NCBI GenBank assembly: GCA_008632985.1
Contig: QPGO01000032.1
Location: 617,330 to 639,577 of the forward strand
Origin: Psammoneis japonica
Taxonomy: Eukaryota
Length of the DNA stretch: 22,248 nucleotides
Reading direction: 5' to 3'
Positions 2,217 through 22,248 of the stretch are shown here, piece by piece. Position 1 is the stretch's first letter. Each line of letters begins with the position of its first letter. The position numbers and the translations under genes were made by a program. Below the pieces are notes generated by a model, which worked only from the letters and a program-made list of their open reading frames with translations, was not told the DNA's origin and did no database searches.

Positions 2217-2257
2217 TAATTCCTCACCACGGAAATCCTCACCAAATCCTCACCACG
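2217..2257 (+). repeat. Left terminal inverted repeat (3x TCCTCACCA subrepeat)
   Basis: TAATTCCTCACCACGGAAATCCTCACCAAATCCTCACCACG is the reverse complement of 15712-15752 with 2 mismatches. Confidence 0.92.
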
Positions 2258-4921
2258 CCTGTCGGCCATCCGTTCTCACGAATCCTTCCCACCGCTCCCG
2301 TACAATTTGTACTGAGCATTGCGTACAACAAATCATTTAACCCGATTTCTTTTCAGTCATTGTCTTTTATGCCATAGCCTAAATAATGCTCGCACATAGT
2401 GCTCCAAATTATTACGAGAGTCGCTAAGAAATGACCTTATTGAATGACATCCCATTCCTCTTCCTGGTATAAACCAACGTAGAAATCACGTAGCTACCTC
2501 CATTAGGACTTCACGAATTTTCCTACTCGAATCATCTGCTGCCGCGTATACACACCGTACAATGAATGCACCGCCGCGAAGTGCATGTCTCCATTGCTGT
2601 CGATGCTGCATGATTGTTGTTACAAGCCAAAACCTCCATTACCCGACAACAGCAGTCGATCTGGGATATGTCACGATGCGCTTGATTCAATGATGATGCT
2701 GGATTTGTGGTGTGTTGTCGACTTTGACCAATGGTGTGTGGCCGATTCGTGATGGCATGCGTGTTTCCTTTGCACACTCGACCGCATTGTTGCTTTCTGA
2801 ATTGCTTCTTCGACCTTCTTCTCTACATCATTCTATATATCACGGATCATTTCTACTCTTACAGACCTTGGCATGTTTGCCAATGATCCAGATGTGTTCT
2901 CCAGGAAACAATTTTTTGGTTTTGTGTTTGGCTGGAAACAACAAACAATGGACGATTGGGTTCCGTCGTTGGCATGTTAGATCATTTTAAACTTGGTGGG
3001 GTGTTGCATCATCTGTCACTGAATTGGCCTGTCCAGTGAATTCCCATGGAATGCCGAATGTCCCAAAAGGCGCTTGGATGGAATGCTGAGTGAGTCCCGA
3101 GTCCGAGACGGCAGGCTGGCTCAGTTGCAGCGGCAATGGAACAAGTCTTGCTGCGGATTCTGCCTTCATTTCGCATGTGACATGGTTGGTTTTGCTTTTT
3201 GATGCAAAAGTGACGATGGCAGTGGTGGCAAACAAAGCATTGGTAAAATCTTCGTCTGGCTCTGCGCGCGTTCCTAGAAATGTGCACTCGAGACAGGTGT
3301 CTTGAGCGTCTTCGGTGCAATGGAGCGATCGATGGATGACAACACCACTCATGTTTTTGGGCATTGATTGAGAAATAAGTTGCTCATCCGATTGAGCTCT
3401 TGGGATTGCAGGGAACACTTGAGGATTCAGAAGCTGGGCCTGCAACGTTTCGCGTTCTGGTCGTGATCCGGGTGCCAGTGGTGGTCTCTTGCACTTGTGG
3501 AGACTTGGGCAAGTGCGAATGGTGTGCTTTGGTTTTGCACAAGCACTGCATGCATTCTTCCTTTTCTTTGGCGGTTGAAGACATTCACCATCGTTGGAAG
3601 ATCTTGTGGAGCAACGGTTGCTCGGTGCACCGTGGTGTCGGTTGGAGCCATTTGATGCATGCATCGCGTCACGCCGGAGTTCTTGCCGGGACCTCTTGCG
3701 TCTTTGGCGGCTTGCTTGTGGCATTGCTTGCAGGATGCCAGGCAGTGGAGCAGCTGCTGGATTTTCAACAACTTCTGACATTGCAGTGTCGAAGGTGGCG
3801 TGGATGCTCATCCCGCGTCTCGCCCTGTCCGCCATTGTTTGGAGCAATGAGGAAAGAGCGGCCATGTTAGATTGGTCGCCTTGAACTAACCCAATGAGGT
3901 TGGATGCTTGGAATGTCAAATCTTGGCAGGTGTGAGATGCGGTGTTAGTTCCTCTTTGTTGCAGTCGTCTCCCGCCAAATCACCTGACACAGTTCTGTCA
4001 TCATCTTCGTCTGAGGTGATGTCCCGGTCGTCATCCAAGGTCGGCGAACTGTGTTGTTGGGTCTCTTTGCGGTCGTACAACAAATCTCCATCATTGGAAT
4101 CGCCATTGTTCAATGTCGTCTCATTGTTCTCATGATTTGGCATTGCGACTGAGTGTGCTTGCTCCGACAGCCATCGATTTGACCATTTGGATGTGTCGAG
4201 CTTGCCGTCGGCTTTGAGTTCGTGTCCGCATTGATGGCCAAAGGCCACTCTCTCATGACATGGGCATCGCATTCCTTGTTGGATCAACACAGATTCTTTG
4301 CAGGTTGACTCTTTCCCACAAGGCCAAACGTTCATTGCGTTGTTTTCTGCCATCACTGCTTGCAGCTTCCTGCTCTTGTTCATCGCAGCGATGTGCAAGT
4401 TCTTGCATGCACACCTGGAGAACGTGCTCTTCGCCAACTCATCATCCACACCAGCTTGACCTTGGTGGCTGGACTTGCACCTTGAGGAAACCACATGAAG
4501 ATTGTCCTCCTCTTTTCTCCGCTTGCGGGTGAGCATTTCCTGGCGCTCTGGCAGGTGCTTCAGGTGCTCGGCGACAGACCAGCTGGCGCCCGCACCAAGG
4601 TGAGCAACAATGCTTGCATGATTTTGTTCTGCAGCAACAGAACCCTCAAGATTTAGATTCATTTCCTGTTGCCGCAGATGACACCCGGCGCAATGCTCAG
4701 GCTTGTCATGAATGGAACAAAGCAGTTGCAGTTTTGCAGCATCGGCCTTCATGACCTCCTTGGCAGCATGGTGCGCAGCATCCCACTCCTCTTGTGTTTT
4801 GGATTGGAGCATTGCACAGAGTTGATTCCGGATTTGCATGCAGCACACCAATCCAAAGCCTTCGTCACTCGGGAATGCTTCCTCTGGCAAGTGACAGTGG
4901 TCTCCTTGTAGAATGATTTGA

Positions 4922-5267
4922 GGGACAATGGGAATCATTTGAAAATGTTGCAAGAGTCACAATTGGCATTTTACACAGGGAAAAACACCAAATCGTGCAG
5001 AAATGCGCACAATGTCATGCGAGAGGGTGACCAGTGCTGCCAACTTTTCGGGAACTCAATTGAAATGTCATCTGACCAAGGGCATTTTGATTTAGATGGT
5101 GAAGAGCAACACCCTTGGTCAGACAACATTTCAATTGATTTCCCGAGGAGTTGATGTTCGAATGTGGAAGGGTTGACAGACTGATGACAAACATTTCTGG
5201 TGCTCTCCTGCACAATTTCTACGTGATGACTCTGAGAGCCGAATGATTCCTGTTGGGCGTTGGTCCC
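4922..5267. mobile_element. Non-autonomous MITE-like insertion (346 bp) inside the transposase gene
   Basis: Ends GGGAC..GGAATCATT / AATGATTCC..GTCCC are inverted and flanked by TTTGA direct repeats (4917-4921, 5268-5272). Excision restores the frame ...FIDALQAQ|IILQGDHCH.... Confidence 0.85.
5041..5153. repeat. Internal 46-bp inverted repeat (5041-5086 / 5108-5153) with 21-nt spacer
   Basis: CAACTTTTCGGGAACTCAATTGAAATGTCATCTGACCAAGGGCATT pairs with AACACCCTTGGTCAGACAACATTTCAATTGATTTCCCGAGGAGTTG. Confidence 0.9.
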
Positions 5268-6303
5268 TTTGAGCTTGAAGTGCATCAATGAAGCATTGCG
5301 TCATGTGCTGGTCCGCAAATGTCATTCTCATGCTGTCAAAGCTCCAGCGTGGCTCCATTTCGGAAGCAGAAAGCAGCACCCAGCAATGGCACTTGTGTGC
5401 TTCTTCGATGCAAACACACTCTGTCACACATCGAACTTTCATTTCGCAGTCCTTTGCAGCGGGCCCAATGTGCGGCCATCCTTGATTGTTGCACTGCCTT
5501 TTCTGGCTGTCCAGGAACAGGATGTCACCACACCGAATCAAATTGCATCGCATTTCTGCTGTCATGTGGCAAACAGCTTCAGGGCGGCCGGTCGCATCAT
5601 GCTTCAAGCGGAAGTCAAAACCGATCAGTGTTTTCTTCAAATCTTGTAAATGGCAAAGCGCATCCCATGTCGAGCCGTCTTCTTGCATTGTCTTCTTTGG
5701 CATGTTTCTCAGATTGACTCTGGTCAAAGAGCTGTCAGCCACAACCAGCTCATTAGCCGCAATTGGTTTCTTGGATGCAAGTCGCTTTAAATCATCAAAG
5801 GACACTTCTTCGTCTTCCTCATTGTTCAGAATCCAGGTGGCTACATGGCTTCGGAAGTTGCTGATGCATTTTGCATCGGCATCAACATGCAAAGGCAAAC
5901 ACTTCATCAGTTTTGGGCGGAGGTCTTCTGCTTTCATGGATGGCTTGATTCGGAGATCCTCTACAATGCTTTGGAGCCCTGCCAAGCTAGGTTGAGTTCC
6001 GCCGCTTGCTTGTTTTGCCTTGCGATGGAACACTGTGTTCAGCTCGCACGTGTGCTGATGCACTGCTGCTGTCATCTTCACTTTGTAGAAAATGTCAGGT
6101 CTCAATTTGTTTGTGAAAGGATCCTTCTTCTTTTCCACAAAGCCATGCATGACACCAAACGGGCGTTTGCACTGGCTTTTCATGGTTGGGCCGACTTTTT
6201 GTTGATTTGATCGGTCAACAAGTGGCACAAGCTTCTTTTTCTTCTTGGATTCAGAGAAGTGGCAACCAGTGGTCTTGCGCTCATGCACGCCCATGGCCCC
6301 CCA

Positions 6304-6579
6304 AGACAGGATTTGAACAGGATTTAGGTGCGCGCGAAATGTCGCGCGCTGTTCAGTTTACCGCGCACAGTTTTGTGTGCTTCAGTTCCGCGCGTTCGCG
6401 CGCGATGCAGTTTGCTTTCGAGCCACAAGGCTCACAAGAACAATGACAGCAGCCCGATCACACCGACTCACACGTCTTTCGGCTCCTGTGACGGTCTCTG
6501 AGCGGAGACTCATCTGCCATTTAGACAGCAGCAAGGAGTCATTGTTTGAATTCTTGCCATTTGCCTTCAATTTCTGTCA
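6304..6579 (+). repeat. 5' LTR (276 bp, AGACAG...CTGTCA)
   Basis: Gap-free alignment with 13087-13362, 21 mismatches by manual count. Confidence 0.96.
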
Positions 6580-6590
6580 GATTAACAGTC
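6580..6590 (+). promoter_or_regulatory. Putative primer-binding site GATTAACAGTC, complementary to a tRNA-Asn(GTT) anticodon arm
   Basis: Directly follows the LTR-terminal CA. Reverse complement GA-CT-GTT-AA-TC has anticodon-loop geometry. Confidence 0.6.
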
Positions 6591-7518
6591 TTGCTCATTG
6601 TCAACCCATTGAGCAACCGCCATCGTCGTCGTTGATTTACCAACGACGCCATTTCAATTCCACGTGGACCTCCGTGTGTGTTCTACATACATCGGCAAGT
6701 CTGCGCACATTCAATGCCAGGGCATCGGCAGGAAGTTAACGTCACCGTCAAGTCTCCTCACCGCTGGACATCTGGATTGATTGTGCTGCCTTTGATCGCT
6801 GAAGACATGCATTCAACGGTCATGTCCAAGTCTATCCTTGATCCTCATCCCTTGATGTGCCTGTTCATCGGTTGACGGTCAAGAACCCCACATGTTCAAG
6901 GATCTTCGTCGCTGAAGACACACACATGTGTGCATGTCTTCACGGCCAAGAACCTGCACCCACTCTTCGGACTGCGGTTTTGCTGCCACTCTACAAGCAC
7001 ACCGAGTCCATTGCACCTGATCTGCCCCGGACTGCTGGTGCTCCACAGTTCTGCCAGGTCCACAAGGATGACTGTGAGAGCAAGCAGCCATGATTGCAGC
7101 CTGCGTTGGGGCGAGGGTGCTTTCCCGCGTTTGTTCGTTCGTCCACAGCGCCTGACGCCTGTGTCAACTGGCCAGCCTGATCGGGAAATCCAACCGACAT
7201 AAAACAAGAACGGTTCGGGGGTCTTGTCCACCTCCAGTCAGCTCACCTGCAGGGGTTTACAACCCGCTGCTCCGCTCGCAAGCAACCCAAAGCACCACTG
7301 GCTGCGGGTTCGGACGTGCCGGCACAACTCTACGGACCGGACAGGAAGTTTAGCACTTGACAACGAACGGGATGGCAAAGCCCGGCGACTTCTGATTTTA
7401 AGATAGATCAAGATTTCAAGTCAAGTCTGTTTCAAGTCAAGTCCATTCTCACCCAAGCTTCAAGCCCACCTTTGCTTCCCAACAAGAATTGCTTGTCCTG
7501 ACACCACTTTTGTCTGCC

Positions 7519-10500
7519 ATGGTTCTCACTCGTCAGCAACAAACCGATGGTTTCGAGCACGTTGTTGGAACCGTGCTTGCCCAAGGTGCTGGGAGCCCTC
7601 TCCATTTGGCTTTGGCACAAGACGGCACGGACTCACATCAAGAACTGTTCACGTTCACACCGTCCCAAATCGACTCGCTTGAGTGCGACAACGGCACCAA
7701 TGTGATCCCTTTGCCCTGTGGTTATAAGAACATGTCAGCAGCTCTGGTTGGTCTGCACATTGTCAAAGCACACAAAGGTCTTGACGTTGCCAATGACTCC
7801 TCGTTGTTCACGCATGACGAGTTCCTTGCCTGCCGCCTCAGCCCCGACTGCATGTCTTCTGTGTCCATCGGCAGCTCACCCCTCGCACCTCCGCATGTCA
7901 CCAACCCGACCAAGGCACGCGACCCGGTGCGGGACTTCAAGCGAGGCATCAAGCGTGATCCCACTGCTTTCACGGCTCTCAAATCTGACAAGCAGTGGCA
8001 CACTTGGCACACCTCACTTGTGGCACAAGCCCGTGCCCAAGACGTCGAGTGCATTCTAGACTCGTCGTACAAACCGACCAGCCCCGAAGACAAACTGCTC
8101 TTTGCTGAACAGCAAAAGCACATGTTCGCCGTCTTCGAATGCATCCTTCTCACCGACAAGGGCAAGGCTCTCATCCGCGAAAATGTGGGGTCTTCTGACG
8201 CACAGACCGTCTGCCGTGCCTTGTCTGAGTGCACGCTCGCCTCCACCCGTGCATCTGTCGAGTCCTCCACCCTGCCAATGTGCCTTGCCACCGCACGTGT
8301 TGGTGATGGCACTTGGAAAGGTCCGACCCACGGGTTCATCCTTCATTGGCAAGATCAGTTGCGCAAGTGCGAGGCACTCATCCCAGCCAGTGACCACTTC
8401 TCTGAAGGACAGAAGCGCGTCATGCTCGAGAATGCCGTGCACCCTGTCGAGGAACTCCGTGCTGTCAAGAACCAAGCTGATCAGCATCGTGCGCAGAGTG
8501 GCAAGAGCCTCACATGCGATCAACACTGTGGCTTGCTCCTCTCCGTGGCAGCCCAATGCGACAGTGCGTTTCAACCCAAGACGACACCTCAAGCTCCCCG
8601 CCGCGCCACATGCGCACACGACGTCTGCTCCGAGGAACCGTCCGACGATGTGTTCTACGACATTGACAGTGACATTGACATCCTTCAGGCCAATGCTGCC
8701 TGCACCCGTGGTCCCAGCCTCACCGGTGACCAATGGAAACGTCTCCCTCCCGACCACCAACGGATTTGGGATTCGTTGCCCCATTCCTCCAAGGCGATCA
8801 TCCTTGAGCATTCTCGTCCGCCTCCCCGTAACCCGCGAGACAGCAACTGCCATGAGTCCATTACGGCCAACCTTCACGACCAACGCCTTGGGAGTGACGG
8901 TGATGTCAACTTGTCCAACACGACTCCTGCTGACTCTGGTGACTCCGCTCCAAATGTGGGTGCCACTTCGGATGATCCCATCCTGGCGCACCTCACCAAG
9001 CGCAAGCCACTGCACCGTCTGTTGTCTCCTAACCAAGCCCCCAATGCCAGTCGACTGGGGCCATCCGCCGCTCCCTCTGCCCCGCCAGCTTCTGCCGATG
9101 ACATGGAACTTAACGGCCGCACTTGCCGCCGCGTCAACAACCACAATGTCATTTGCTCTGCCTCTGCTCATCGCTCCACATGCACTGGCGCTCTAGTCGA
9201 TCGTGGGGCCAACGGCGGCATTGCTGGCAACGACGTTCGCGTCATTGCACGCACCTCTCGCCAAGTCGACGTTCAGGGCATTGACGACCATCAATTGGTG
9301 GACATCCCCATTGTCACTGCTGGTGCCGTCATTGAGACCCAGCGTGGTCCCGTCATCGCCATCCTCCATCAGTGCGCATGCACGGGCAAGGGCAAGACCA
9401 TCCACTCCTGCGGCCAGCTCGAATGGCACAAACAGGATGTCAACGATCGCTCTGTCAAGGTGCCCAACGGCTTGCAATGTGTTGCCACTCCTGATGGCCA
9501 TGTCATCCCCATTGACATCAAGGCCGGCCTGCCTCATGTTGCCATGCGACCTTGCACTGACGCCGAATGGGACACCCTGCCCCATGTCATCCTCACCGGT
9601 GATGACACATGGGATCCTTCCGTCCTCGATCACTCTGTCGCTGATGATGACCAGTGGTGCGACGCGATCTCTGACCTGCAGGACGATCCCACTGCCAACC
9701 TGTTTGACGAATGCGGCAACTGCCGTCATCATGTCGTTGTCAACGAGACCATCATGTCTGCTTCCTTGTCTGCCGATCACGCGTCCACCCTCGATGATCA
9801 CCTCATTCCGAACGACGACGTGTTCTGCGAGTGTCATCCACACGCGATTGACCCCAAGGACGACGACGTCCCGCCCCCGGAGCGCACTGCACAGCCCAAG
9901 GACCCGCCCTTCGAGTCTCTTCGGCCTTGCTTTGGCTTCCCACCTGCCGACACGGTCCGTCATGCTTTTGACTGCACCACGCAGTGCGCCCGCATGCCCA
10001 CCGGTGCACACCTTAGGAAGGCCTGCAAATCACCCAACCCCACCCTCAATGTGCACCGCCGCAACGAGCCTGTTGCCACTGACACCGTTTGTGCCGACAC
10101 CCCGGCCGTCGACTCTGGTTGCACCAGTGCCCAACTGTTTGTTGGCACCGAGTCTACCGTCACTGACGTCTGCGGCACCAAGACGGACAAAGAGTTTGTC
10201 AACACACTCGAGGATCAGATCCGTGAGCGTGGTGCCCCATCCAAACTCATTGGCGACCGCGCTCAAGTTGAGATCAGCAACAAAGTGCTCGGGATCCTGT
10301 GGGCCCTCTTCATCTCCAGCTGGCAAAGTGAGCCTCACCAGCAACACCAAAACTTTGCCGAGCGTCGACACCAGACCGTGAAGCGCATGGCGAACACTGT
10401 CATGGATCGTTTTGGTTCGCCCGCCCACACATGGCTGCTGGTGCTCATGCATGTGTGCTTCACACTCAACCACACAGCATCCCCACGTCTCCACTGGCAC

Positions 10501-13040
10501 ACGCCCCTCGAGACTCTCACTGGCTCCACCCCGGACATCAGCCCATTGCTTCGCTTTCACTGGTGGGAACCCGTGTGCTTCCACCTCGATGACTCCGATT
10601 GGCCGCCCGAATCCCGTGAGTTGCGTGGACGCTTCGTTGGCATTGCTGAGCACGTCGGCCACCAGATGACCTTCAAGATTCTCTCTAACGAGACTCAGAA
10701 GATCCTCTGCCGGTCCAACGTCCACTCCGCTGCCACCGATCCTGCCGTTCGAAACCTGCGTCTTGATCCTCCTGATGGGGAGCCACCTGAACCCATCATC
10801 AAATCTCGCCATGATGACAACCCCGTCGATTCTCCTGATGGGGAGATCAGGACACCCAAGATGCCAGTTTTTGATCCGCAAGACATCATTGGACGCACCT
10901 TCCTCATGCAGCCACAAGAGGACGGACAACGCCACAGAGCTCGCATCGTCAAGGCCGTCGAAGACCACGAATGGAAAGTGAACGGCAATCCCGAGCTCAC
11001 TAAGTTCGTCTGCTCTGTCAACAATGACGAACACGAGGAAGTCCTTGCCTGCAATGACATCATGAATCACATTGAGCAAGAAGACGAAGACACTGCCATT
11101 TGGAAATTTCGATGCATCGTGTCACACGAAGGACCTCTGAAGCCTCACGACCCAACCTGGAAAGGCTCAAGCTACAACATCATGCTTGAATGGGAAAGTG
11201 GGGAGATCACGTCCGAGCCTCTTGCCATCATCGCCAAGGACGACCCCATCACCTGCGCCATCTGTGCATGAGAGAACGGGCTCCTCGACACGGATGGCTG
11301 GAAGCGGTTCCGCACCATCGCGAGGCGCCAAAAGAAGCTGTTTCGCATGGCCAACCAAGCCAAGCTTCGCTCCTTCCGCACTGCACCTCACTGCAAGTGT
11401 GGATGCGAAGTTCCCCGGAACTGCAAACACGCCATGTCACTAGATGAATGCAACGGCAACCGCAAATGGGGAGACGCAACTAATCTCGAGATGGACCAAC
11501 TCGACGAATACAAAGTCTTCCATGACTGCGGGCCCTTTGAGTCTTCCACTCCTCCTGCGGGACACAAGAAGATCCGAGTGCACCTGGTGTACGACGTGAC
11601 GACGGACACCTCACGGATGCACCCATCGACAGTGTCTGCTCCGGAGCAGTCTCCCTCCATGGCCTTCGGCTGATGATTTTCCTGGCCGAACTCAACGAGT
11701 TGGAGACATGGGCCACCGACATTGGCAATGCCTGCCTTGAAGCCACCACCAAGGAGAAGCTTTACATTGCAGCCAGACCCGAATTTGGCAAACTCGAAGG
11801 ACACATCCTTGTCATCCACAAGGCCCTGTGTGGACTGCGCAGCTCCGGTCTCCGCTGGCATGAGCGCTTCGCCGACTGCCTGCGAGCTGAAGGCTTCTTC
11901 CCCTGCCGCGCCGAACCCGACATTTGGATGTGCAGGAACGGCGACCACTGTGAATGCATTGCCGTTTATGTGGATGACCTCGCCATTGCCATGAAGGACC
12001 CTCAATCTTTCGTCGACACTCTCACGGAAAAGTGCAAGTTCAAGCTCAAGGGTGCGGGACCCATTGAATTCCATCTGGGTTGCGACTTTTCCCGGGATCC
12101 CGACGGAACCTTGTGCCTGTCTCCGCGCAAGTACATCGAGCGCATGGTCGACAGCTGCGCCCGACTGTTTGGGGAGAAACCTGCCACCAACGCCCTGTCA
12201 CCTCTGGAGAAGGGTGACCACCCCGAACTGGACACTTCCGAACTGCTGGGACCCGATGGCATTCACAAGTTCCAGTCTCTTGTTGGTTCACTCCAATGGG
12301 CAGTGTCCCTTGGTCGAATTGACATCACCATGGCCGTCATGTCACTCTCTAGCTTCTGAGCTGCGCCCCGTCAAGGCCACTTGGATCGTGCCAAACGCGT
12401 CTGTGGGCACCTCTCCAAGATGCGACACGGTGCTCTCCGCGTTCGCACGGAAGAGCCCGACTGTTCGGATCTCCCTGCTCCGGCCTGTGAATGGATGCAT
12501 TCCGTGTGCGGCGAAGCAGAAGAGATGATCCCGAAGGACGCTCCACCGCCCCTTGGCAAGTTCGTCACTGCCACCCACTGTGTCGATGCAAACTTGCACC
12601 ATTGCATGCTCACCGGACGCTCTGTCATGGGAATGCTCCACTTCCTCAACAAATTCCCGGCTGATTGGTTCTCTAAGAAGCAAGCCACCGTGGAGACTGC
12701 AACCTGCGGGTCTGAATTTGTTGCCGCAAGGACTTGTGTCGAGCAGATTGTTGACCTGCGCATCACCCTGCGCTGCCTTGGCGTCCCGATCCGCAATGTC
12801 AGTTGCATGTTCGGTGACAACAAGTCGGTTGTAGACAGTGCCACCATCCCGCACTCCAAGTTGCACAAGCGACACACCGCACTGTCGTTCCACCGTGTGC
12901 GTGAGGCAATTGCCTCTGGTTGCCTTGAGCTCCACTTCATCGAAGGCTCCCGCAACCCTGCTGACATCCTCAGCAAGCATTGGGGTTGCTCCCAAATCTG
13001 GGACCTTCTCCGCCCCCTCATGTTCTGGAACTTCATTTCA
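7519..13040 (+). pseudogene. gag-pol polyprotein pseudogene (Gag, protease, integrase, chromo-like segment, RT, RNase H); 3' end approximate
   Basis: ATG 7519; Gag DFKRGIKRD; PR LVDRGANGG (~9190); IN VATDT / GDRAQVE / QNFAERR (~10070-10370); RT KALCGL and YVDD (11967-11978); RH VDANL, GSEFVAA, GDNKSV, NPADILSK. Lesions: TGA 11269-11271, frameshifting deletion at 11599/11600, TGA 12357-12359. Confidence 0.95.
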
Positions 13041-13080
13041 TCCGAAGTCGAATCTGTTTCTGTGACTCCTCAAGCAAACT

Positions 13081-13086
13081 GGGGAG
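13081..13086 (+). promoter_or_regulatory. Short polypurine tract (GGGGAG)
   Basis: Abuts the TG start of the 3' LTR. Confidence 0.65.
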
Positions 13087-13362
13087 TGACAGGATTTGAA
13101 CAGGATTTGGGTGCGCGCGAAATGTCGCGCGCTGTTTAGTTCACCGCACACAGTTTTGTGTGCTTTAGTTCCGCGCGTTCGCGCGCGATGCAGTTTGCTT
13201 TCGAGCCACAAGGCTCACAAGAACAACAACAGTGGCCCGATTGTGCCGACTTGCACGTCTTTCGGCTCCTGTGATGGTCTCTGAGCGGAGACTCATCTGC
13301 TGTTTAGACAGCAGCAAGGAGTTGTTGTTTGAATTCTTGCCATTTGCCTTCAATTTCTGTCA
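13087..13362 (+). repeat. 3' LTR (276 bp, TGACAG...CTGTCA)
   Basis: Canonical TG...CA ends with a 6-bp terminal inverted repeat, followed by TSD CCCCA. Confidence 0.96.
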
Positions 13363-13679
13363 CCCCACATGTCCAGAAATTCCTTTGCGGCCTGCACAAG
13401 CTGCGTGTGACTGGCAAACTGTCGGCCGATGGGGAACAGCAGAGCAGCCTTTTGCTCGAAAGCTGTTTTGCAACGCTCGTTGTCTCTGTCACGACTCATC
13501 TCCCCATTGGAAGGAGCGTGATTTCGCATCTCATCCTCCAAGCCAGTGGTGACCCAGTTTTTGCCTTGCAGTTCCTTGCTTTGTAGCTTGAGCTCGTCAT
13601 GCGACGTGGTGTCCGCACCGCATTGATCGAGCCAGCAAGGCTCGTACAACGTTTTGCTCGTCCCAGCAACACCACTCAT
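13363..13679 (-). pseudogene. MULE transposase, N-terminal part
   Basis: ATG at 13679 (MSGVAG...FPIGRQFAS..LVQAAKEFLDMWG). Removing the copia plus one TSD gives atg tgg ggg gcc atg ggc gtg (MWGAMGV), in frame with ORF 5131..6294. Confidence 0.85.
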
Positions 13680-13938
13680 TGTTGTGTTGGTTGGCAAGCA
13701 AAGCTTGCAGCAACAAGAAAAACAAGAGTGAGACAGTGCCTTGTCCATCGTGACAAAATGTGGCCGATCTCAAAACTCACCAACACCTTTTCATTGTTGT
13801 TGGATTCAGTGCTCACTTGTGTGGTGACGGCAGGGACCATGTCCTTCACGGCTGGAGGGGAGAATGTCTTGATGATGCAAGCAAGCACAGGGGGAGTAAA
13901 TTGTGAGATTGCTTTTTACAAAACAAAACTAAGTCTGG

Positions 13939-14818
13939 TCAAGCACAACAACACACCTTTCCTTTTGCACTTGATGGACTTAAATGTTCACAATGGCCGC
14001 CACCGTCATGGGTTGTGGTGATGGAATTGGCTGGAGGAGACAGCCAAGTGTCTCTTACAAATGACAACTGCACTTTTCCATTGGAACAATGGCATGTGGC
14101 CGTGTTTTTGTTGCTTCCCATTCCACAGCAGACAATCAATCGCTCATGCTTGAGAGCGACAATGGTGCTGCACACGTTTGCATCACACCAATGACGTTTG
14201 CCACAACCAGAATTGAAGTCAACCCCGAGCAAGCAGTTTTAGAAATCGAGCTTTCCGGCTTGCACCAGTGTCATGCTCGTTCCTGTGGTCGACAACAAAT
14301 TCCGCGATGACTTTCCCGTCACATGCAACCGCCAAGAGACCTCTGTCCTCACCTGCACCATCATCCAAGGGCAGACCGCACAAGCCCTCAAAGTTCTGTG
14401 CAGCAAAACCATGTGTGTGTTTTCGGAAACCAGTCATGTCCTTGTTGTGGGTGCCTTTTTTGATTGAGCTGGCCTCCTCCAGTCCCTTCAGCACAGCGCA
14501 GTGTCCCCAGTTGCCGTCAGCAGGGACAGCAACAGAGCGACCGATTTTTGCCAGGTCGGCAACATGCTCAAGGCCAAGCGTGGACGTCAGAGAAAAGTCA
14601 GGTGTTTTTTCAAGAGTGATGACAACAGAGTCATCATCCAGTGAGCAGCAGCCGGGTTCGACTTTGGCCTGCTTGCGGTCGGCATCGTCATCCAATGAGC
14701 AGCCGGGTTCGGCGTTGTCATCGACGACAGCCAACGCCTTCATGTTGCTCTCATAAAACACTTCATGATGAGGGCTCACGTGAATCTTGTGAGGGTCGTG
14801 AAGGAGCCGCATGGTCAT
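13939..14818 (-). pseudogene. OTU-like cysteine protease (deubiquitinase-like) pseudogene carried by the MULE; frameshift near 14225
   Basis: VAVPADGNWGHCAV resembles the OTU Cys box (VxxDGNCxYxA) with C->W. Downstream, in a shifted frame, HW.DAN and HDGGGHCEHL resemble the Trp motif and His box (GHYxxL). Start and end are uncertain. Confidence 0.6.
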
Positions 14819-14836
14819 GGTGTGGTGCTGAGCTGC

Positions 14837-14874
14837 CTTGAGGGTCGTCTTGAGGGTCGTCTTGAGGGTCGTCT
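14837..14874. repeat. 3 x 12-bp tandem repeat CTTGAGGGTCGT
   Basis: Three exact copies. Confidence 0.95.
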
Positions 14875-14994
14875 GACAGAGCAGAAATGTGTTGCTGTGC
14901 TGCCAGCATGGGCAAGAGACACTGCAATCTACCAGCAGAATCTCAGGGCACGAACAAAATGGCAAAGCACCGCCACACAACAGCGCAACCAATG

Positions 14995-15499
14995 CACTCG
15001 TTGATGCCAGCGGATTTGAGTCTTCAGCAAGTGACTCTCGCATCGTCGACGCCTCGTCGCCACAAAGTGTGGTCTTCTGACGACAACCCCAAATTGTCAA
15101 GGTGCAAGTCGTTCCCGACAACGACCCAAAATTGTTCAGGTCGTGTCTCAAACCGCCTTTGCAGATTAGAAGGCAACTCAACTAGAGTCAAAAACAAGAC
15201 TGCACCGTGGACGACTCGAGAGACTCCAGCGCAAATCAGCTGAAATGCTCGTTGACGCCAGCAGATTTGAGTCTTTGGCAAGTGACTCTCGCATCGTTGA
15301 TGCCTCGTTGCCACAAAGTGTGGTCTTCTGACGACAACCCCAAATTGTCAAGGTGCAAGTCGCTCCCGACAACGACCCAAAATTGTTCAGGTCGTGTCTC
15401 AAACCGCCTTTGCAGATCAGAAGGCAACTCAACTGGAGCCACCAAAAACAAGACAACACCGTGGACGACTCGAGAGACTGCAACGCAAATCAATTGAAA
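14995..15499. repeat. Head-to-tail ~250-bp tandem duplication (14995-15245, 15246-15499)
   Basis: Copies align end to end with mostly transition differences and one 3-bp indel. Confidence 0.95.
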
Positions 15500-15711
15500 C
15501 AAAAAGTGTGACAATCGTGAGGTGCCGCCGTAAAGCGGCGCGCCACAGAGGACGACGGTTGAAGACAGTCGAAGATGCAGACGTCACATGCAGACAATGA
15601 CCGGGGCTGAGGTGTTCACTCAAGTGATGGACTTTGTTCCAGTGCTCGGACAGCCGTTGATGTTGTGATGTGGCAGTTCGCATGTGACGCCAAGACATTT
15701 AACGAAATTTC

Positions 15712-15752
15712 CGTGGTGAGGATTTGGTGAGGATCTCTGTGGTGAGGAATTA
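15712..15752 (-). repeat. Right terminal inverted repeat
   Basis: CGTGGTGAGGATTTGGTGAGGATCTCTGTGGTGAGGAATTA. Confidence 0.92.
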
Positions 15753-16230
15753 CAGGCCTCGCTGATCCAATCGGCAGCGCGCAGCTCACACATCTATGTA
15801 GTGTTTATTGTTTCACTTAATACTTTCGGCAGTTTGTAATGTTCACGAATGGTAATAATATTATTTGGTACAATTGACCGTAAATGTAGTGTTTATTATT
15901 TTCATAAATAAAATCCTTAAGACATGTAGACACGTTGGATATTTTACTACATAGGTTGCTGACATCAAATTTTCAAGACGATACGTAGAAAGACAGTATG
16001 ATGTATCAAGAAAGACATATATGACGTCAATGATGACGTAAGTTCAACAAACACTAAATGTTCGAATAAAAGTTACGAAAAATGCGTTTGTCACAAATCT
16101 TCGCCGATAATGTCTAACGGATAAGTAATCGTAGCAACAATAAATACTAAACACTAGATCGGCGACCCCTGTATGTAGTAACTCTCTCTATTTTGCTGTC
16201 GTCGGCATCGTCTCGGCAACGATGTGAAAA

Positions 16231-17094
16231 ATGCGTGGAATGCGTTCAATGTACGCGACGAATCAATCTGCTCGTGCGACAACAGACGATTTTCAAAATA
16301 GCAGCGCGCTACGGTATGCCGCAGAGGACACCATGGCCAATAGGGCCCTACACACAATGGCGTCATCAAGCGACGACAATCACGAAAAGAGCCATGAAAC
16401 AAAGGTATCTGATGCTCAAAAGGCCTTGTGGACGGTTCTCAAAGATGGCTCAGTAAATGTCATGAAAGAAGCGCGAACCGCATGGAAAGGAACCGAGAAA
16501 GATGACTACAAGTACGAACAAGCCGCAATTCGTCTGGCTTACCAACCCATCATGTGGGGAGTTGGGTGCGCCTTTCTTTCGTTCTTTAGCTTTCGTTTGG
16601 GTAGTAGCAAGTGGATGCAGCGATATCGACAAACTGGCTCATTTCTTGGGAGCACACGATCCAGTTATCCAGGAACGCCTGCTCAAACAGCACAGAAGAA
16701 TCCGGGTCAGTTTCAGAGTTTCTTAGAGAAGAAACAGAAAGCACAAAGAGAAGCTCTAAACCAAGCGCTATCGATTCCCACCGACTTGTTACTAAGTATC
16801 TTGATTGGAACGTCGGTAGGAATATTTTTGACTGATCAACAAGAGCTAAAACAAAATGTAGAGCGGATTCCTCTACTGCCAGGAAAGAGCCTTGTATCAA
16901 AGCACGTTTGCCGACCCCTCATTGCAGAGTATGAAAAGTTGGAGCCAGATATTGAATCTGATCCTTCCCTAGCTATGTTTACCGGGCTGGTCCGCAACTG
17001 TCGCAAACGACAAGAATACGAATCAAGACTGGCGCAATCATCATCATATGATGTGGATCAGGTTTCGATTCCTTTTCCTGGTGTACCAAGCTGA
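16231..17094 (+). CDS. Hypothetical membrane protein (two hydrophobic segments); the true start may be a downstream Met
   Basis: 287-aa ORF of normal composition; TM-like IMWGVGCAFLSFFSF and LLLSILIGTSVGIFL. Confidence 0.75.
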   Translation: MRGMRSMYATNQSARATTDDFQNSSALRYAAEDTMANRALHTMASSSDDNHEKSHETKVSDAQKALWTVLKDGSVNVMKEARTAWKGTEKDDYKYEQAAIRLAYQPIMWGVGCAFLSFFSFRLGSSKWMQRYRQTGSFLGSTRSSYPGTPAQTAQKNPGQFQSFLEKKQKAQREALNQALSIPTDLLLSILIGTSVGIFLTDQQELKQNVERIPLLPGKSLVSKHVCRPLIAEYEKLEPDIESDPSLAMFTGLVRNCRKRQEYESRLAQSSSYDVDQVSIPFPGVPS

Positions 17095-17486: not shown

Positions 17487-18809
17487 TCACTTTTGACATT
17501 GAGGACTCAATTTCCCAACAATATCCTTTCCGTGGACAAGACCCTCCTTGTCTGCTTCTTGTATAGCATCCCACAATTTGAAATCCATCCAATATGCTTG
17601 TCTCACCTGCTCCATCAGTTCTGGGGTGTAGTACTCGTCCATTTTCTTTTGAGAGTCTTTGTGATGACTATAAGTATCCATTCCTCCCTCGAGTTGTTGA
17701 AATCCTGGCGCTTCGCCCGCTAACCAAGAATTCAAATCCGGAGGCGGAATTGCAGCATTGGATCGAAGTCTACTATCGTGCGATACGCGATAGTGCTTCC
17801 CGAACGACTCCCACATGCTTACATTTTGTAGCAACGCTTTTGTATGATGAGCCGCACGATCAAGGATACCAATGTATTCAAATTGGGGCATAAATTCAGA
17901 TAGTCCACAAGACCACGCTTGAGGCCTCCAATGGGGGTCGGTGTACCAAGTGAGACCGCTACCCTTGTCGTTTTCATTTCGATTAGACACATATGCTACA
18001 AACTCTGCAAATGTTGCATTCTTTCCCTTCATCTTTCTTGGTTTGTTCTTTATCTTGTCCAGATATGCCGACAGTAAACGTTCCGCAGGATTTCGAATAA
18101 AGACAGCCTTGGTCCAGTTTTGCCATACTTGCTCCTGCAAGATTCGAGTAGTGCGGTCAAAGAATAATCGGCCAGTATCAGGCTTTTGATGTGGAAACGA
18201 TTGATAGTCTTTGGATCCAATTGTAAAGCGTAGAAACTGTAGCCATTGGGTAAAGCCGGCCTTTGGTATACCGCAAAAGGCCAGCTTGCCTTGGGGAAAC
18301 AAAATCATGCGGTCAAACCGCCCAGAGCCTCCTTCCATCGTATACAAACTACATCCCAATGGAAACGATTCAAGTAGGACGCTGAAATTGGATCCATCCG
18401 CTTGACACCAATTTACAGAAGGAGTTAGAGCAGCATTGGCGATTGTACAGCTCTCTTTGTGATGATTCAGTTCCTCTCGCGTTTGCGGCCTCCAGTAAGC
18501 AAACGTGGCAGCCTCTTGCTCCGAAGAGAATGGATAGATGGAATTGTTGCACCCCTTTTCTGTAAAGCAAGTACTGAAGAATGATGCTTTTTTGCCATCA
18601 CAGCAGCCGTAAAACGTGACAGGCTTCAGAGCATCCGGAAGATCTCGCGGAGCACTGAACGTTCCTATGGAGTGAAGGAAACCGTGATGATTGGAGTTCG
18701 TCTGTGAGTTCAGAAGAATCCACTGGCCGACGCATGATAACGCTATCAGTGTAAATAAAATACAACGCCATGAGGCGAACGGGGAATTCGTCTCCCGTCG
18801 TGGCGCCAT
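17487..18809 (-). CDS. Golgi-type carbohydrate sulfotransferase (Sulfotransfer_2 / HNK-1ST-CHST8-14-like)
   Basis: N-terminal anchor; 5'-PSB motif FCGIPKAGFTQW; 3'-PB motif FIRNPAERLLSAYLDK; DPHWRPQ; C-terminal YWMDFKLW. Confidence 0.92.
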   Translation of the reverse strand: MAPRRETNSPFASWRCILFTLIALSCVGQWILLNSQTNSNHHGFLHSIGTFSAPRDLPDALKPVTFYGCCDGKKASFFSTCFTEKGCNNSIYPFSSEQEAATFAYWRPQTREELNHHKESCTIANAALTPSVNWCQADGSNFSVLLESFPLGCSLYTMEGGSGRFDRMILFPQGKLAFCGIPKAGFTQWLQFLRFTIGSKDYQSFPHQKPDTGRLFFDRTTRILQEQVWQNWTKAVFIRNPAERLLSAYLDKIKNKPRKMKGKNATFAEFVAYVSNRNENDKGSGLTWYTDPHWRPQAWSCGLSEFMPQFEYIGILDRAAHHTKALLQNVSMWESFGKHYRVSHDSRLRSNAAIPPPDLNSWLAGEAPGFQQLEGGMDTYSHHKDSQKKMDEYYTPELMEQVRQAYWMDFKLWDAIQEADKEGLVHGKDIVGKLSPQCQK

Positions 18810-19867
18810 GGCCTCATACGCAGCGATGGAGAATAATTATGGCATCTGGCATCTCATCACTTTGCAAACCCGGCAAAACTTCAGAAAAATCCAACGGACA
18901 TTTTTTTCCTCACGCCTGGCTGTACGTAGTACGTTTGGTACGGCGTCACACGTAAAGCACGAGCTCGAATTTAATGTTTTAGTAACCCGGAACGTTGCAA
19001 TCGCTGCAATCGTTGCATTTGCACTTTTTTCCCCGTGTAAATAACACGTGTTTTTGTCAGGAGGTGGGGACATCGGGGGACATTTGGGGACACACCACCA
19101 CGAGCTCTTTCGTGTAGAGCAGTACTGAGTTCTACACGTGCACGACATTCGGCATTTTTCTTTTCACTGCCACCATGACATTGGTTGATTTGCAACGCCG
19201 CTCTGCTTGTCTAACGGCAGAGTGGGTGCTTCGACACCTACCCGTTTCGAAGATAAAATGTAAATAGCCGTAGCTTCCACTGCAGCACACTGCGTTGCAA
19301 ACCACAGCAGATGCGTGGTGCGGTTTGAACGATATGGAATCCTTTCAACGAATTCTAGAGCATACGACGCTGAAGCGTACAAGACAAAACAAGAAGAAAA
19401 ACGAACGAACTACTGTTGGAGCTTGTTTCAGCGCAAGCCTCTGTTTTGGCATAGCTGGAGTGTTCCGAATCAATTACGTCCTGTGATTTCTCGGGAAGAT
19501 CGGCAAAAGCGACGTTGCCCCTGCAAGAACGGCCCTCGTGCCTGTGCCACAGGTGCTTCACGTTATACTACAGAAACGCAACTATCGAGGGAGAAAGACG
19601 ATTGCTCGTCGAGAGGGTAGAAACTAGAGTAGGCGAGGATTGATCTCATGCAAGATAGATGCGTGCCGTCACCATACAGTACGCACATCTATCGCGAAAA
19701 GGCGAAGGGAAGGAAACGCACTTCAGTAGCTAGATTTTCACGGCGACGCTTTGTCAAAGGGGAAGGGGTTTGCACTCTACAACTAGAAACGCAGCATTTA
19801 AACCCTCAGTATTACAATACGAAGACGATTTTTCAATTCAGAAGCAATCATCGGGCCTCACTATTTA

Positions 19868-21461: not shown

Positions 21462-22248
21462 CTATGAACATTGTGGGATACAGCATCCATTTTTCATACA
21501 GCCCATTTCAGTTCGACATGGAATCCAAAACGTGGTCAAAGAAAAGTCACGGAGCTCGCAAATTTCTTTTACAGATCCTCTCATATCCGTGCCATCAATC
21601 TTGAGCGTTCGGAGGTGGCTCAAGTTCCTAATCGTGGAAGGCAAAGTCCCACTCATTCGCGTTCGACCAACATCAATAACACGAAGAGATGCGCAACGAC
21701 CAATTTCGGATGGAAGACTGCCCGATAGATTGTTCGCTGCAAGAATTAAGCTTTCAAGTAAAGCCAAACTCCCAATCTCGGAGGGGATGTTCCTTCTAGC
21801 CCTCCAGTCAGGATGGCAAAGTGAGATAATTTGTCCAACTTGCCTATCTCCGTTGGGATTGTTCCCCGTAGTTGGTGGCCATCGGCGACCAAATACTCCA
21901 AGGAACTGATGTCTGCCAACGTAGTGGGGATCGTTCCTTTTATGTTGGTATAAGAGAAATCCAAGATTCGAAGCTTGGAAAGGCTTCCTAGTTCAGACGG
22001 CAAAGTTCCATCGAAGGAATTGGAACGCAGCTCAACAGCTTCAATTTCCGGCCAATGAAGAACCTTGTCAAATACAGGCCCCTCAAAGTTATTTCCATCC
22101 AAAAGAAACCACTTGATACGATTCATAGAGGACATTGACTCGGGTAGAGTACCTGTGAACATGTTTTGTTCTATCCCAAGCACCCGCAGATTTGCCAGAG
22201 ATCCTATTCTGTCGCTGAGAGTACCTTCAAGCCTATTCGTCCACAGAT
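21462..22248 (-). CDS. Plant-type LRR protein, C-terminal part (starts beyond the window), with a 1-nt frameshift near 21789
   Basis: Repeated LxxLxLxxNxxxGxxPxxxG units in ORFs 21746..22183 and 21462..21767. The frame stays open to the window edge (LWTNRLEGTLSDRIGSLANLRV). Cys-rich C-cap (CRTEMGCMKNGCCIPQCS). Confidence 0.8.

Follow-up and report, generated by a model that had tools for sequence, protein, structure and literature searches.

A TpA-depleted transposon nest in a diatom points to a transposon-directed mutator with a RIP-like effect and the opposite chemistry

Nested transposons beside a host gene

We analysed a window of 22,248 nucleotides from the diatom Psammoneis japonica (contig QPGO01000032.1, positions 617,330 to 639,577), in which a DNA transposon hosts a copia-type retrotransposon and a small MITE-like insert (Table 1). 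The inverted repeats of the Mutator-like element (MULE) are 41 nt long and 95% complementary between the two ends; the arms share no sequence past them, and no target-site duplication (TSD) was recognised at the ends. The window's transposase protein itself has no Pfam match. A phmmer search against 1.84 billion representatives returned 530 matches to it (best 7.9e-83), and ZSWIM1-3_RNaseH-like was found in three of six scanned relatives, once above and twice below the curated cut-off. By eye, the transposase also appears to carry a SWIM-like Cys/His motif. The bounds of the MITE-like insert are marked by contigs that jump from 4925 to 5256 and from 4962 to 5170, and summed contig depth reaches 3445 in the bin over the insert versus ~140-280 in adjoining bins.

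The copia element is flanked by a 5-nt TSD, CCCCA (6299-6303 and 13363-13367), and its empty-site joint (6298 to 13363) is present in two contigs. It matches the RVT_2 profile at 9.6e-19, and its 609 relatives, the best of them 60% identical, reveal kinship to diatom copia elements. With two frame changes, it is a dead copy. A first-pass annotation, made from the letters alone, had described a 1260-aa gag-pol ORF here. The ORF (7489-11271) was recovered with its 4 Tyr, alongside 45 Cys and 63 His; it encodes gag, protease and integrase, and holds no reverse transcriptase (RT) or RNase H. The five Tyr-replaced motifs quoted in that annotation were located at 11820, 11949, 12693, 12768 and 12585, within RT/RNase H, in a frame other than that of the long ORF. 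Named matches of the neighbouring sulfotransferase-family protein come from Thalassiosira, Cyclotella, Skeletonema, Nitzschia and Pseudo-nitzschia (32-42% identity), placing the host among the diatoms.

Table 1. Features of the window (positions counted from its first letter)
Feature	Position	Strand	Remarks	Basis
Mutator-like (MULE/ZSWIM-type) DNA transposon	2217..15752	-	host of the nest	terminal inverted repeats, transposase relatives
Left terminal inverted repeat of MULE	2217..2257	+		inverted-repeat search
Right terminal inverted repeat of MULE	15712..15752	-	TpA-poor domain ends here	inverted-repeat search
TpA-depleted, TpG/CpA-enriched domain	2670..15752	.	core 2990-15752	dinucleotide o/e
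Transition zone	2670-2990		includes surviving 6-TA island 2824-2860	
Decayed MULE-type transposase	2990..6357	-	three open pieces: 5134-6357, 3919-4956, 2990-3979	
MITE-like small insert	4926..5255	.	hairpin arms 5041-5082 and 5112-5153; 3 TA	
Ty1/copia-type LTR retrotransposon	6304..13362	+		LTRs, TSD, RVT_2
5' LTR of copia	6304..6579	+		repeat comparison
Gag-protease-integrase open frame	7402..11268	+	1289 codons stop to stop	
RT and C-terminal pol	11541..13136	+	RT 11541-12356, C-terminal pol 12360-13136; shifted frames	RVT_2, 40-relative alignment
3' LTR of copia	13087..13362	+		repeat comparison
Tandem repeat of ~251 nt	14994..15499	.	two copies; MULE subterminal part	
Host gene, Sulfotransfer_2-family protein	17490..18836	-	normal TpA	profile match 4.2e-27

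Loss of TpA and its direction

Throughout the nest (~2670/2990 to 15752), the observed/expected ratio (o/e) of TpA is 0.11, the flanks having 0.68. TG and CA stand at 1.52 and 1.50 versus 1.12 and 1.15, and CG falls slightly (0.79 versus 0.98). The other 12 dinucleotides are essentially flat at 0.90-1.08 of their flank values, with AA, AT and GA unchanged; G+C is 53.8% inside and 46.2% outside. Every 500-nt window from 3001 to 15750 has a TpA o/e of 0.00-0.28, whereas flank windows range from 0.49 to 0.94, and 2990-15752 contains 78 TA against 462 expected from the flank o/e (Poisson P = 1.5e-108). Within the domain, one TpA-free gap measures 820 nt; the longest outside it is 99 nt. Arithmetic on the dinucleotide counts closes the mass balance, with ~400 TA and ~175 CG lost for ~590 TG and CA gained, and TA->CA is overall as common as TA->TG. 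On both strands of the domain together, TAA and TAG number 58 and 55 versus 554 TGA; the abundance of long ORFs in every frame of the six is a by-product of TA loss.

The TA counts of the first-pass annotation were reproduced (18 in bases 1-300, none in 9195-10013, 25 in 7489-13136), and at this locus the depletion is indeed limited to the transposon nest, neighbouring genes being normal. Position 2990, given there as the start, does open the core of the domain but is no sharp left edge. That edge is gradual, with zero TA in 2668-2823 and the next six clustered at 2824-2860. The right edge is sharp and coincides with the end of the terminal inverted repeat at 15752. The MULE end at 2217-2670 has normal TpA although it belongs to the same transposon as the depleted domain.

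We polarised the change with 40 intact copia relatives, taking as Tyr columns those with Tyr in at least 80% of them. At the 40 such columns the window copia has Tyr 4, Cys 26, His 5 and Phe 5 times, while 617 of 710 conserved columns are retained and every non-Tyr residue type is kept at 73-100% (Tyr versus the rest, Fisher P = 1e-30). In pol, 43 of 75 Cys align to majority-Tyr columns. Tyr makes up 0.38% of residues in this copy, whereas the median across 120 relatives is 3.86%. A->G at codon positions outside TA affects ~10 of 298 conserved residues, versus 26 of 40 for Tyr->Cys; Lys (AAR) became Arg at 3 of 38 conserved columns and Asn (AAY) became Ser at 0 of 19. The MULE transposase has likewise 0.18% Tyr versus 3.24% in relatives, and none of its six columns with at least 60% Tyr is retained (His 4, Cys 1, Phe 1). 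Thus the conserved Tyr of the 40 relatives and the sister copies described below together establish that TA turned into TG/CA, as proposed, and not the other way round. It was also correctly seen that the DNA transposon and the MITE-like insert are affected like the LTR retrotransposon, as judged by dinucleotides, Tyr loss from the MULE and the few TA in the insert.

Survival of TA depends on context, being 0.04 in RTAY, 0.10 in mixed contexts and 0.35 in YTAR. The corresponding values of -ln survival (3.22, 2.30 and 1.05) fit two additive strand rates, with TAY favoured over TAR ~3-fold per strand. Since TpA reads the same on both strands, an A->G change in it on one strand amounts to T->C on the opposite one; action on both strands, as originally claimed, is borne out. 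Across copia, Tyr->Cys outnumbers Tyr->His 40 to 8, made up of 25 to 2 where TAY lies on the sense strand only and 15 to 6 in symmetric RTAY.

Hypermutation of chromosomal DNA after integration

Comparison of the 5' and 3' LTRs over 275 positions shows 20 differences, all of them transitions within YR dinucleotides, including seven TG-versus-CA swaps, four of TA versus TG/CA and two of CG versus TG/CA. They share 20 intact CpGs but a single TA, ~18 of an estimated 19 TA sites having been hit. CpG origin predicts 0.03 TG/CA swaps for this pair (P = 4e-15). Seven swaps with 20 CpGs intact therefore mean that TA was lost independently in each LTR, and zero differences outside YR dinucleotides place the TA rate far above background; by arithmetic, the per-site load on TA is ~40 times that on CpG within the same LTRs. 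Hence the hypermutation occurred in DNA, after integration, and TA loss greatly outpaced both CpG decay and background change. Hits are coherent by strand, with 8 CA and 1 TG in the 5' LTR and 2 CA and 7 TG in the 3' LTR (Fisher P = 0.015).

Other copies were compared with the window in contigs from one sample that may be the assembly's own source; of the 33 differences listed, the window has TG/CA for TA elsewhere in 24 and the reverse in two. At 6650-7069, all 26 listed differences fit loss of TA (24) or of CpG (2). Between the MULE and the X1 contigs, two of four listed differences fall on rare remaining TA (3245 and 5963), and agreement in the low-copy MULE part is close (3 differences per 704 nt at 2720-3423). 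Window-specific bases of copia are partly contig-backed (79% of sampled words are present in X1), the window letter being absent from every contig at 8233, 9640 and 10260 in this high-copy element. If the assembly is mosaic inside copia, the LTR comparison and strand patterns are weaker.

TpA depletion recurred in two of 80 related metagenome loci, one (L052) with 1 TA per 1388 nt and the other (L002) with normal TpA to about 750 and ~0.1 thereafter; confinement to repeats is thus documented at one locus and two metagenome contigs. In L002, silent and non-coding sites are poor in TpA, and 16 of the 19 remaining TA are in-frame Tyr codons, so that selection too shapes TpA content in some lineages. 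The first-pass annotation had held that intact copies should not be equally poor in TpA and Tyr: the 40 relatives keep their Tyr, and L002 is TpA-poor with about half its Tyr codons retained. CpG decay is dominant in many of these related metagenome copies, several of the 80 loci having a CG o/e of 0.05-0.25. TpA is normal in bases 1-2000 of the window even though several related contigs match there, so that being repeated may not suffice as a trigger.

Possible origins of the TpA loss

We consider it probable that a transposon-confined, post-integration process turns 5'-TA-3' into TG or CA in chromosomal DNA. It would cause A:T->G:C transitions on either strand of the palindromic TpA, hitting ~85-90% of sites with other positions near-unchanged, in a class II MULE, its MITE-like insert and a very high-copy class I copia, and would stop at the element end. 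TAY is preferred over TAR, the two strands add up, and runs of sites tend to the same strand. Irreversible inactivation would result, nearly all Tyr codons becoming Cys or His. The process may be enzymatic and serve in defence, its chemistry being perhaps the conversion of DNA adenine to hypoxanthine by deamination. As agent we tentatively suggest, at less than even confidence, a TadA/ADAT-like or toxin-derived DNA adenine deaminase that would be drawn to silenced or repeated sequences. The natural site of TadA, UACG, resembles the TAY preference of the nest, and engineered TadA base editors demonstrate that the fold is capable of DNA adenine deamination; we know of no natural eukaryotic DNA adenine deaminase.

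A literature search found no description of TpA-destroying transposon hypermutation. The nearest parallel is RIP, the RID/DIM-2-dependent process of Neurospora and other Ascomycota, which like the events in the nest loads integrated, chromosomal transposon copies with transitions; both are dinucleotide-specific, on both strands in same-strand runs, with a sharp element edge, near-saturation, nearby genes spared and ORFs killed. RIP, however, changes C to T at CpA, creating TpA and lowering G+C, whereas the A:T->G:C change in this diatom, which as the first-pass annotation had pointed out runs the other way, destroys TpA, yields TG and CA, and raises G+C. RID-related DNMT4 genes with no assigned function are present in diatoms (PMC9998398); a C5-methyltransferase fold does not predict adenine chemistry. 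Deamination of 5-methylcytosine (5mC) at CpG in methylated transposons shares the palindromic YR target and the TG and CA products, and such decay is also present in the nest at a lower level (the reduced CG o/e; 2 of the 20 LTR differences), but its substrate is CG, whereas that of the nest is TA, with 20 CpGs intact in both LTRs. Retroelement editing by APOBEC3/AID and TCG-context transposon hypermutation in basidiomycetes likewise leave short-context footprints of host deaminases, and the loss of target motifs over the long term from lineages that survive resembles L002; unlike in the nest, their chemistry is on cytosine (C->T / G->A).

The damaged base might instead be the T of TpA, modified to 5hmU or 5fU by a TET/JBP-type dioxygenase or otherwise, and mispairing with G to give T->C. 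All our data fit A->G at T-A-Y and T->C at R-T-A equally well, 5-formyluracil induces T->C mutations, and in dinoflagellates 5hmU takes the place of T, with a preference for TpA. To our knowledge no such T modification has been reported for diatoms, and a strict need for 5'-T typifies tRNA A34 deaminases, whose substrates invariably present U33-A34; we regard damage to T as unlikely. Less likely still is an analogue of CpG decay, in which symmetric N6-methyladenine (6mA) at transposon TpA, maintained like 5mC, would undergo steadily raised deamination without bursts. The palindromic target, the additive hits on both strands, the coexisting CpG decay and the MULE differences at 3245 and 5963, as expected if decay continues, accord with it; the opposed strand ratios of the LTRs (8:1 versus 2:7) suggest processive one-strand events, the ~40-fold excess over CpG also speaks against it, and 6mA is not known to us from diatom TpA.

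Transposon transcripts might also have undergone A-to-I editing by an ADAR- or ADAT-like enzyme with a 5'-U preference, fixed in the genome via reverse transcription. Such editing would account for the bias towards the sense strand seen across the coding part of copia, and ADAR hyper-editing of retroelement RNA and fungal ADAT2/ADAT3 mRNA editing do yield clustered A->G changes that favour a 5' U or T. These enzymes act on RNA, whereas the MULE and its insert are equally depleted without any RNA intermediate, the two LTRs, which were the same at integration, lost TA independently of each other and on opposite strands, and TA->CA matches TA->TG overall. Editing of RNA is thus very improbable as the source, and would at best supplement events in DNA.

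Slightly less credible still is the absence of any mutational event, through assembly or base-calling artefacts at modified bases or an intrinsically TpA-poor family (UpA selection, foreign origin), for which one might cite the single-sample contigs, the copia letters without contig support and the Tyr-keeping L002 lineage. Contigs match the low-copy MULE part, miscalls on both strands would have created CG too whereas CG is lowered, the 1289-codon frame implies accurate assembly, and two contigs from other assemblies share the pattern; intrinsic composition is excluded for the window copy by its conserved Tyr turned Cys or His, the divergence of its LTRs and the sister copies that carry TA. 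Patch repair in heterochromatin by the error-prone Pol eta, a candidate of the first-pass annotation since A->G at TA belongs to its WA motif, is the least likely of all: the AA half of WA is untouched (AA o/e 1.16 inside versus 1.10 outside, AG 0.93 versus 1.03), Lys and Asn codons rarely or never turned into Arg and Ser (3 of 38 and 0 of 19), and near-saturated sites without other substitutions are unlike polymerase error.

In conclusion, this ~13-kb transposon nest points to a transposon-directed mutator in this diatom, with an effect like that of RIP and the opposite chemistry.

TpA depletion and the architecture of the nest

A nest of mobile elements spans about 2217-15752, and over its positions 2990-15752 TpA was depleted six-fold. 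In these 12,763 nt we counted 78 TA sites, an observed/expected ratio (o/e) of 0.11, as against 427 sites and a ratio of 0.68 in 8,712 nt of flanks (Poisson P = 1.5e-108), and the longest TA-free gap measured 820 nt in the nest versus 99 nt outside. The TA and tyrosine counts of the first-pass annotation were all correct on recount. In the nest TG stood at 1.52 (flanks 1.12), CA at 1.50 (1.15) and CG at 0.79 (0.98), while the remaining 12 dinucleotides stayed at 0.90-1.08 of their flank values. By arithmetic the shifts balance, with about 400 TA and about 175 CG gone and about 590 TG and CA gained; over the whole nest the gains of TG and of CA are equal. Because TAA and TAG are nearly gone (58 and 55 on both strands, with TGA at 554), long open reading frames (ORFs) occur in all six frames; these are by-products, not genes.

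On the right, depletion ends where the inverted repeat of the outer, putatively Mutator-like transposon (MULE) ends. The very AT-rich spacer directly outside, 15753-16250, has 37% G+C, a TpA o/e of 0.94 and a CpG o/e of 1.65, a contrast reached within about 45 nt. The left edge is ragged: 2217-2667 has normal TpA, 2668-2823 has no TA, 2824-2860 keeps six, and depletion then sets in. Thus the MULE end at 2217-2670 was spared, though part of the inverted-repeat element. The six-TA island may have been inserted later, may belong to a segment that is not shared, or may be a protected site.

Features of the window and the evidence for each
Feature	Positions	Strand	Basis
MULE terminal inverted repeats, 41 nt, 95% complementary	2217-2257 and 15712-15752		repeat search
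Decayed MULE transposase, three open pieces	2990-6357	-	relatives by phmmer
Small hairpin-bearing MITE-like insert	~4926-5255		contigs skip the stretch; summed depth raised there
Ty1/copia LTR retrotransposon	6304-13362		276-nt LTRs, target-site duplication CCCCA
Gag-protease-integrase open frame, 1289 codons	7402-11268		
RT and C-terminal pol in shifted frames	11541-13136		
Sulfotransfer_2 flanking gene	17490-18836	-	Pfam family match

Mutator-like elements are marked by a MULE/SWIM-type transposase, terminal inverted repeats and a target-site duplication of 9-11 bp. The transposase pieces had no Pfam match of their own; phmmer returned 530 relatives (best 7.9e-83), and three of the six scanned carry ZSWIM1-3_RNaseH-like, one above the curated cut-off and two below it. 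No target-site duplication was found at the element ends, nothing could be aligned between left and right arms past the 41-nt repeat, and a purine/pyrimidine-collapsed repeat search of the MULE gave no additional internal homology. The copia element has LTRs, a 5-bp target-site duplication, the order gag-PR-INT-RT-RH and an RVT_2 match (9.6e-19), as expected of Ty1/copia; its integrase and protease domains were seen by alignment to relatives and not by Pfam. Its protein has 609 relatives, the best 60% identical, and its empty-site joint (6298 to 13363) is present in two contigs. Among long ORFs of the transposon region, Pfam matched 1 of 12 and 1 of 27 frames, with RVT_2 only, since decay hides the missing domains.

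In the flanks, the Sulfotransfer_2 gene has 208 relatives. The best unnamed ones reach 50-54% identity; those with names, at 32-42%, belong to Thalassiosira, Cyclotella, Skeletonema, Nitzschia and Pseudo-nitzschia, which marks the window as diatom DNA. An ORF of 406 aa (365-1585, + strand) has no family match in Pfam, relaxed thresholds included, or in the protein atlas. Positions 1-2000 look multi-copy because several related contigs map there at 85-93% likeness, yet their TpA is normal (o/e 0.57-0.80). An open-ended leucine-rich-repeat ORF (21749-22246, - strand; LRR_1 3e-13, LRR_8 7.9e-12) lies at the right edge of the window.

Direction and timing of TA loss

The first-pass annotation had proposed that TA was changed to TG or CA, and this direction was borne out by conserved tyrosines, by the dinucleotide shifts and by differences between the LTRs. 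As reference for the four copia frame pieces we took 40 intact polyproteins (1750-1950 aa), picked from 80 of that length among the 120 relatives listed. In the alignment, 723 columns agree to at least 80%; the window covered 710 of them and kept the consensus residue in 617 (87%). At the 40 tyrosine columns, only four tyrosines were kept; 26 had become Cys (20 TGC, 6 TGT), five His and five Phe. Other residue types were kept at 73-100% (tyrosine versus the rest, Fisher P = 1e-30). Lowering the threshold to 50% gave 64 tyrosine columns, now reading Cys (40), His (8), Tyr (8), Phe (6), Leu (1) and Trp (1). Conversely, 43 of the 75 copia cysteines align to majority-tyrosine columns, and the element has 0.38% Tyr and 3.85% Cys as against a median of 3.86% Tyr and 0.9% Cys in the 120 listed relatives. 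At codon positions lacking a preceding T, A-to-G change was rare (Lys to Arg 3/38, Asn to Ser or Asp 0/19, Gln to Arg 0/21, His to Arg 0/25). That the DNA transposon is affected too, as the same annotation held, agrees with a MULE tyrosine content of 0.18% versus 3.24% in 23 relatives, and with none of six conserved tyrosines being kept (four His, one Cys, one Phe).

The two LTRs of the single copia insertion differ at 20 of 275 positions, without any transversion and always within pyrimidine-purine dinucleotides; no position outside such dinucleotides changed. The differences comprise seven swaps (TG in one LTR, CA in the other), four cases of TA versus TG or CA and two of CG versus TG or CA; 18 positions are TA-derived. 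A swap requires two changes on a TA or CG ancestor. Twenty CpGs are intact in both LTRs and only two changed; from CpG ancestors one would thus expect 0.03 swaps (P = 4e-15). If the ancestors were TA instead and each LTR lost about 84% of them, the counts come out as observed: one shared TA, four single and seven visible double losses. Therefore TA was lost independently in each LTR after integration, at which the two were identical, and the loss acts at the DNA level. Per site, the TA load exceeds the CpG load about 40-fold by arithmetic. The LTRs are also strand-coherent in opposite directions (CA:TG 8:1 versus 2:7, P = 0.015). This comparison would be weaker if the assembly were a mosaic within a very high-copy element; flank anchoring, the target-site duplication and the empty-site contig argue against a mosaic. 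The copies of a 251-nt tandem repeat were uninformative, because their differences are mixed (two swaps, two TA-type, seven CpG-type) and the two copies fall out of register past about 197 nt.

Other copies were sought among contigs from four sequencing runs (X1-X4) of one sample, placed at 80% likeness. X1 placed 15,539 contigs on the window, X2 contigs cover the flanks and not most of the nest, and those of X3 and X4 cover copia only; stretches left uncovered carry no weight as evidence. Summed contig depth, which does not equal copy number, was 60,000-160,000 over copia versus about 60 over the sulfotransferase gene. Among the 33 best-supported differences, beyond which 1444 more exist, 24 have TG or CA in the window and TA in other copies, and two have TA in the window and TG elsewhere; three restore CG, and four are other G>A or C>T changes, three of them at CpG. 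Within 6650-7069, all 26 listed differences are losses of TA (24) or CpG (2). The 24 TA-loss sites read TA throughout in one X3 contig, and in one or two X4 contigs except at 7053, which has the window's letter. Since other copies carry TA, the ancestor of the copia family was TpA-normal and its copies were altered independently. In the low-copy MULE part, two of the four listed differences from X1 fall at rare surviving TA sites (3245 and 5963), which hints that TA loss is still going on.

A (CA)n stretch followed by (TG)n at 6900-6945 is a former TA microsatellite, as other copies hold T and A at alternate positions; conversion took place on opposite strands in its left and right halves.

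Target context and candidate mechanisms

At this locus the change is confined to transposons, is specific to TpA, turns A:T into G:C on both strands, prefers TAY and comes in same-strand runs. Relative to the flanks, TA survived least in RTAY (0.04) and most in YTAR (0.35), with mixed contexts between them (0.10). The corresponding -ln values (3.22, 2.30 and 1.05, from RTAY through mixed contexts to YTAR) fit a model in which each strand is hit independently, at a rate of about 1.6 for TAY and of about 0.5 for TAR, which makes 5'-T-A-Y the preferred target. In the copia ORF, Tyr to Cys outnumbered Tyr to His 25:2 where the sense strand alone offers TAY, and 15:6 in symmetric contexts (P = 0.08), a modest extra sense-strand bias. 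The MULE tyrosine sites gave no clear strand bias. Same-strand runs among 48 Tyr sites, with two adjacent His pairs, were not clearly non-random, and TG-versus-CA skew along the nest was set aside, being confounded by coding composition.

The process would be enzymatic and directed at transposons; its trigger may be duplication, heterochromatin or small RNA. Adenine deamination in DNA is our leading, though tentative, candidate for its chemistry. As far as is known, tRNA A34 deaminases invariably meet their target in the form U33-A34; TadA has the site UACG, and its evolved forms accept DNA. Modification of thymine at TpA in place of adenine fits the data equally well, because TpA is palindromic. 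The first-pass annotation had also put forward error-prone synthesis by Pol eta, whose WA signature is A-to-G change at both TA and AA. The TA changes alone would suit it; AA and AG dinucleotides are unchanged, however, and AAR and AAY codons are kept, so this candidate is disfavoured. An assembly or base-calling artefact is unlikely: contigs agree over the MULE, reading frames have stayed intact, no CG was created, and the pattern recurs in two other assemblies.

Editing of RNA by an ADAR/ADAT-type enzyme, fixed by retrotransposition, would match the observed A-to-G change with its 5'-U preference. Such editing needs an RNA intermediate, and hence leaves sense-strand changes only, identical in both LTRs. 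Here the MULE is equally affected, the LTRs differ at TA-derived positions and CA gains equal TG gains; depletion in the MULE and LTR divergence exclude RNA editing alone. Decay of methylated CpG is present in the nest as a minor second process (CG o/e 0.79 versus 0.98; 2 of 20 LTR differences), but can explain neither the TA loss nor the seven swaps (P = 4e-15). GC-biased gene conversion is rejected, since no change is seen at A or T in the contexts AA, AT, GA and TT.

Related elements, fungal RIP and implications

Scanning metagenome contigs with the integrase-region alignment yielded 80 loci related to the copia, with TpA o/e mostly at 0.45-0.89 and many strongly CpG-depleted. Many of these loci combine CG o/e of 0.05-0.25 and TG/CA of about 1.5-1.8 with normal TpA; diatom copia loci therefore show two different mutational fates within one element superfamily. 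The TpA signature occurred in 2 of the 80. One (L052) has a single TA in 1388 nt and keeps 1 of 18 aligned tyrosines. The other (L002) has normal TpA to about position 750 and then about 0.1 over 2.7 kb. Over 707 codons its in-frame TAs number 16 at codon positions 1-2, none at 2-3 and three at 3-1, whereas intact relatives have dozens in each class; it keeps 14 of 29 tyrosines, and silent TA is almost gone. To judge from this pattern, L002 looks like a lineage that kept replicating under TpA-loss pressure, shedding dispensable TpA. In a further locus (L008), positions 1-750 are TA-poor, with 44-58 TG versus 18-23 CA per 300 nt, and adjoin an AT-rich block and a CpG-depleted copia. This is possibly a one-strand version of the process or simple sequence; as the stretch may be of low complexity, we did not count it as a third case.

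Fungal RIP makes C:G to T:A transitions, mostly at CpA/TpG, and so enriches TpA; it is confined to duplicated DNA, acts after integration with sharp ends, requires RID/DIM-2 and is premeiotic. The change seen here followed integration and is confined at this locus to transposons; both families have other copies, and 2217-2670 of the MULE was spared. In contrast to RIP, it runs from TA to TG or CA and depletes TpA. We class it as a transposon-directed hypermutation that resembles RIP in how it operates and departs from it in the chemistry by which RIP is defined. To our knowledge, permanent silencing of transposons by mutation has been described almost only in fungi, where it is based on cytosine. 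We found no description of TA to TG/CA or A-to-G hypermutation of transposon DNA in the literature searched, subscription-only papers being outside its scope. Term searches of PMC2806351 and PMC3145265 gave nothing relevant on RIP, hypermutation, deamination or transitions, and PMC9258296 proved to have no bearing on the matter. The nearest relevant passage found, in PMC9998398, concerns RID-related DNMT4 genes of diatoms, whose function is unknown.

It is conceivable, if doubtful, that some diatoms have a deaminase of their own for adenine in DNA, or another TpA-directed modifier to the same effect, which is recruited to transposons and changes TA to TG or CA. It would have evolved independently of fungal RIP, as its counterpart with the opposite chemistry, and would drive surviving lineages, such as L002, to purge silent-site TpA. 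The search for this enzyme would have concrete handles in the preference of TAY over TAR and in the strand-run behaviour, and could turn up adenine deamination of DNA in nature, an activity so far confined, as far as we know, to laboratory-evolved TadA base editors. If true, the process would account for G+C-rich, tyrosine-less, stop-poor 'ORF-rich' repeats that mislead gene prediction. It would also affect the dating of LTR elements, since TA sites saturate while other sites stay unchanged. Furthermore, mutational defence would be a strategy that evolved more than once, with different chemistry.
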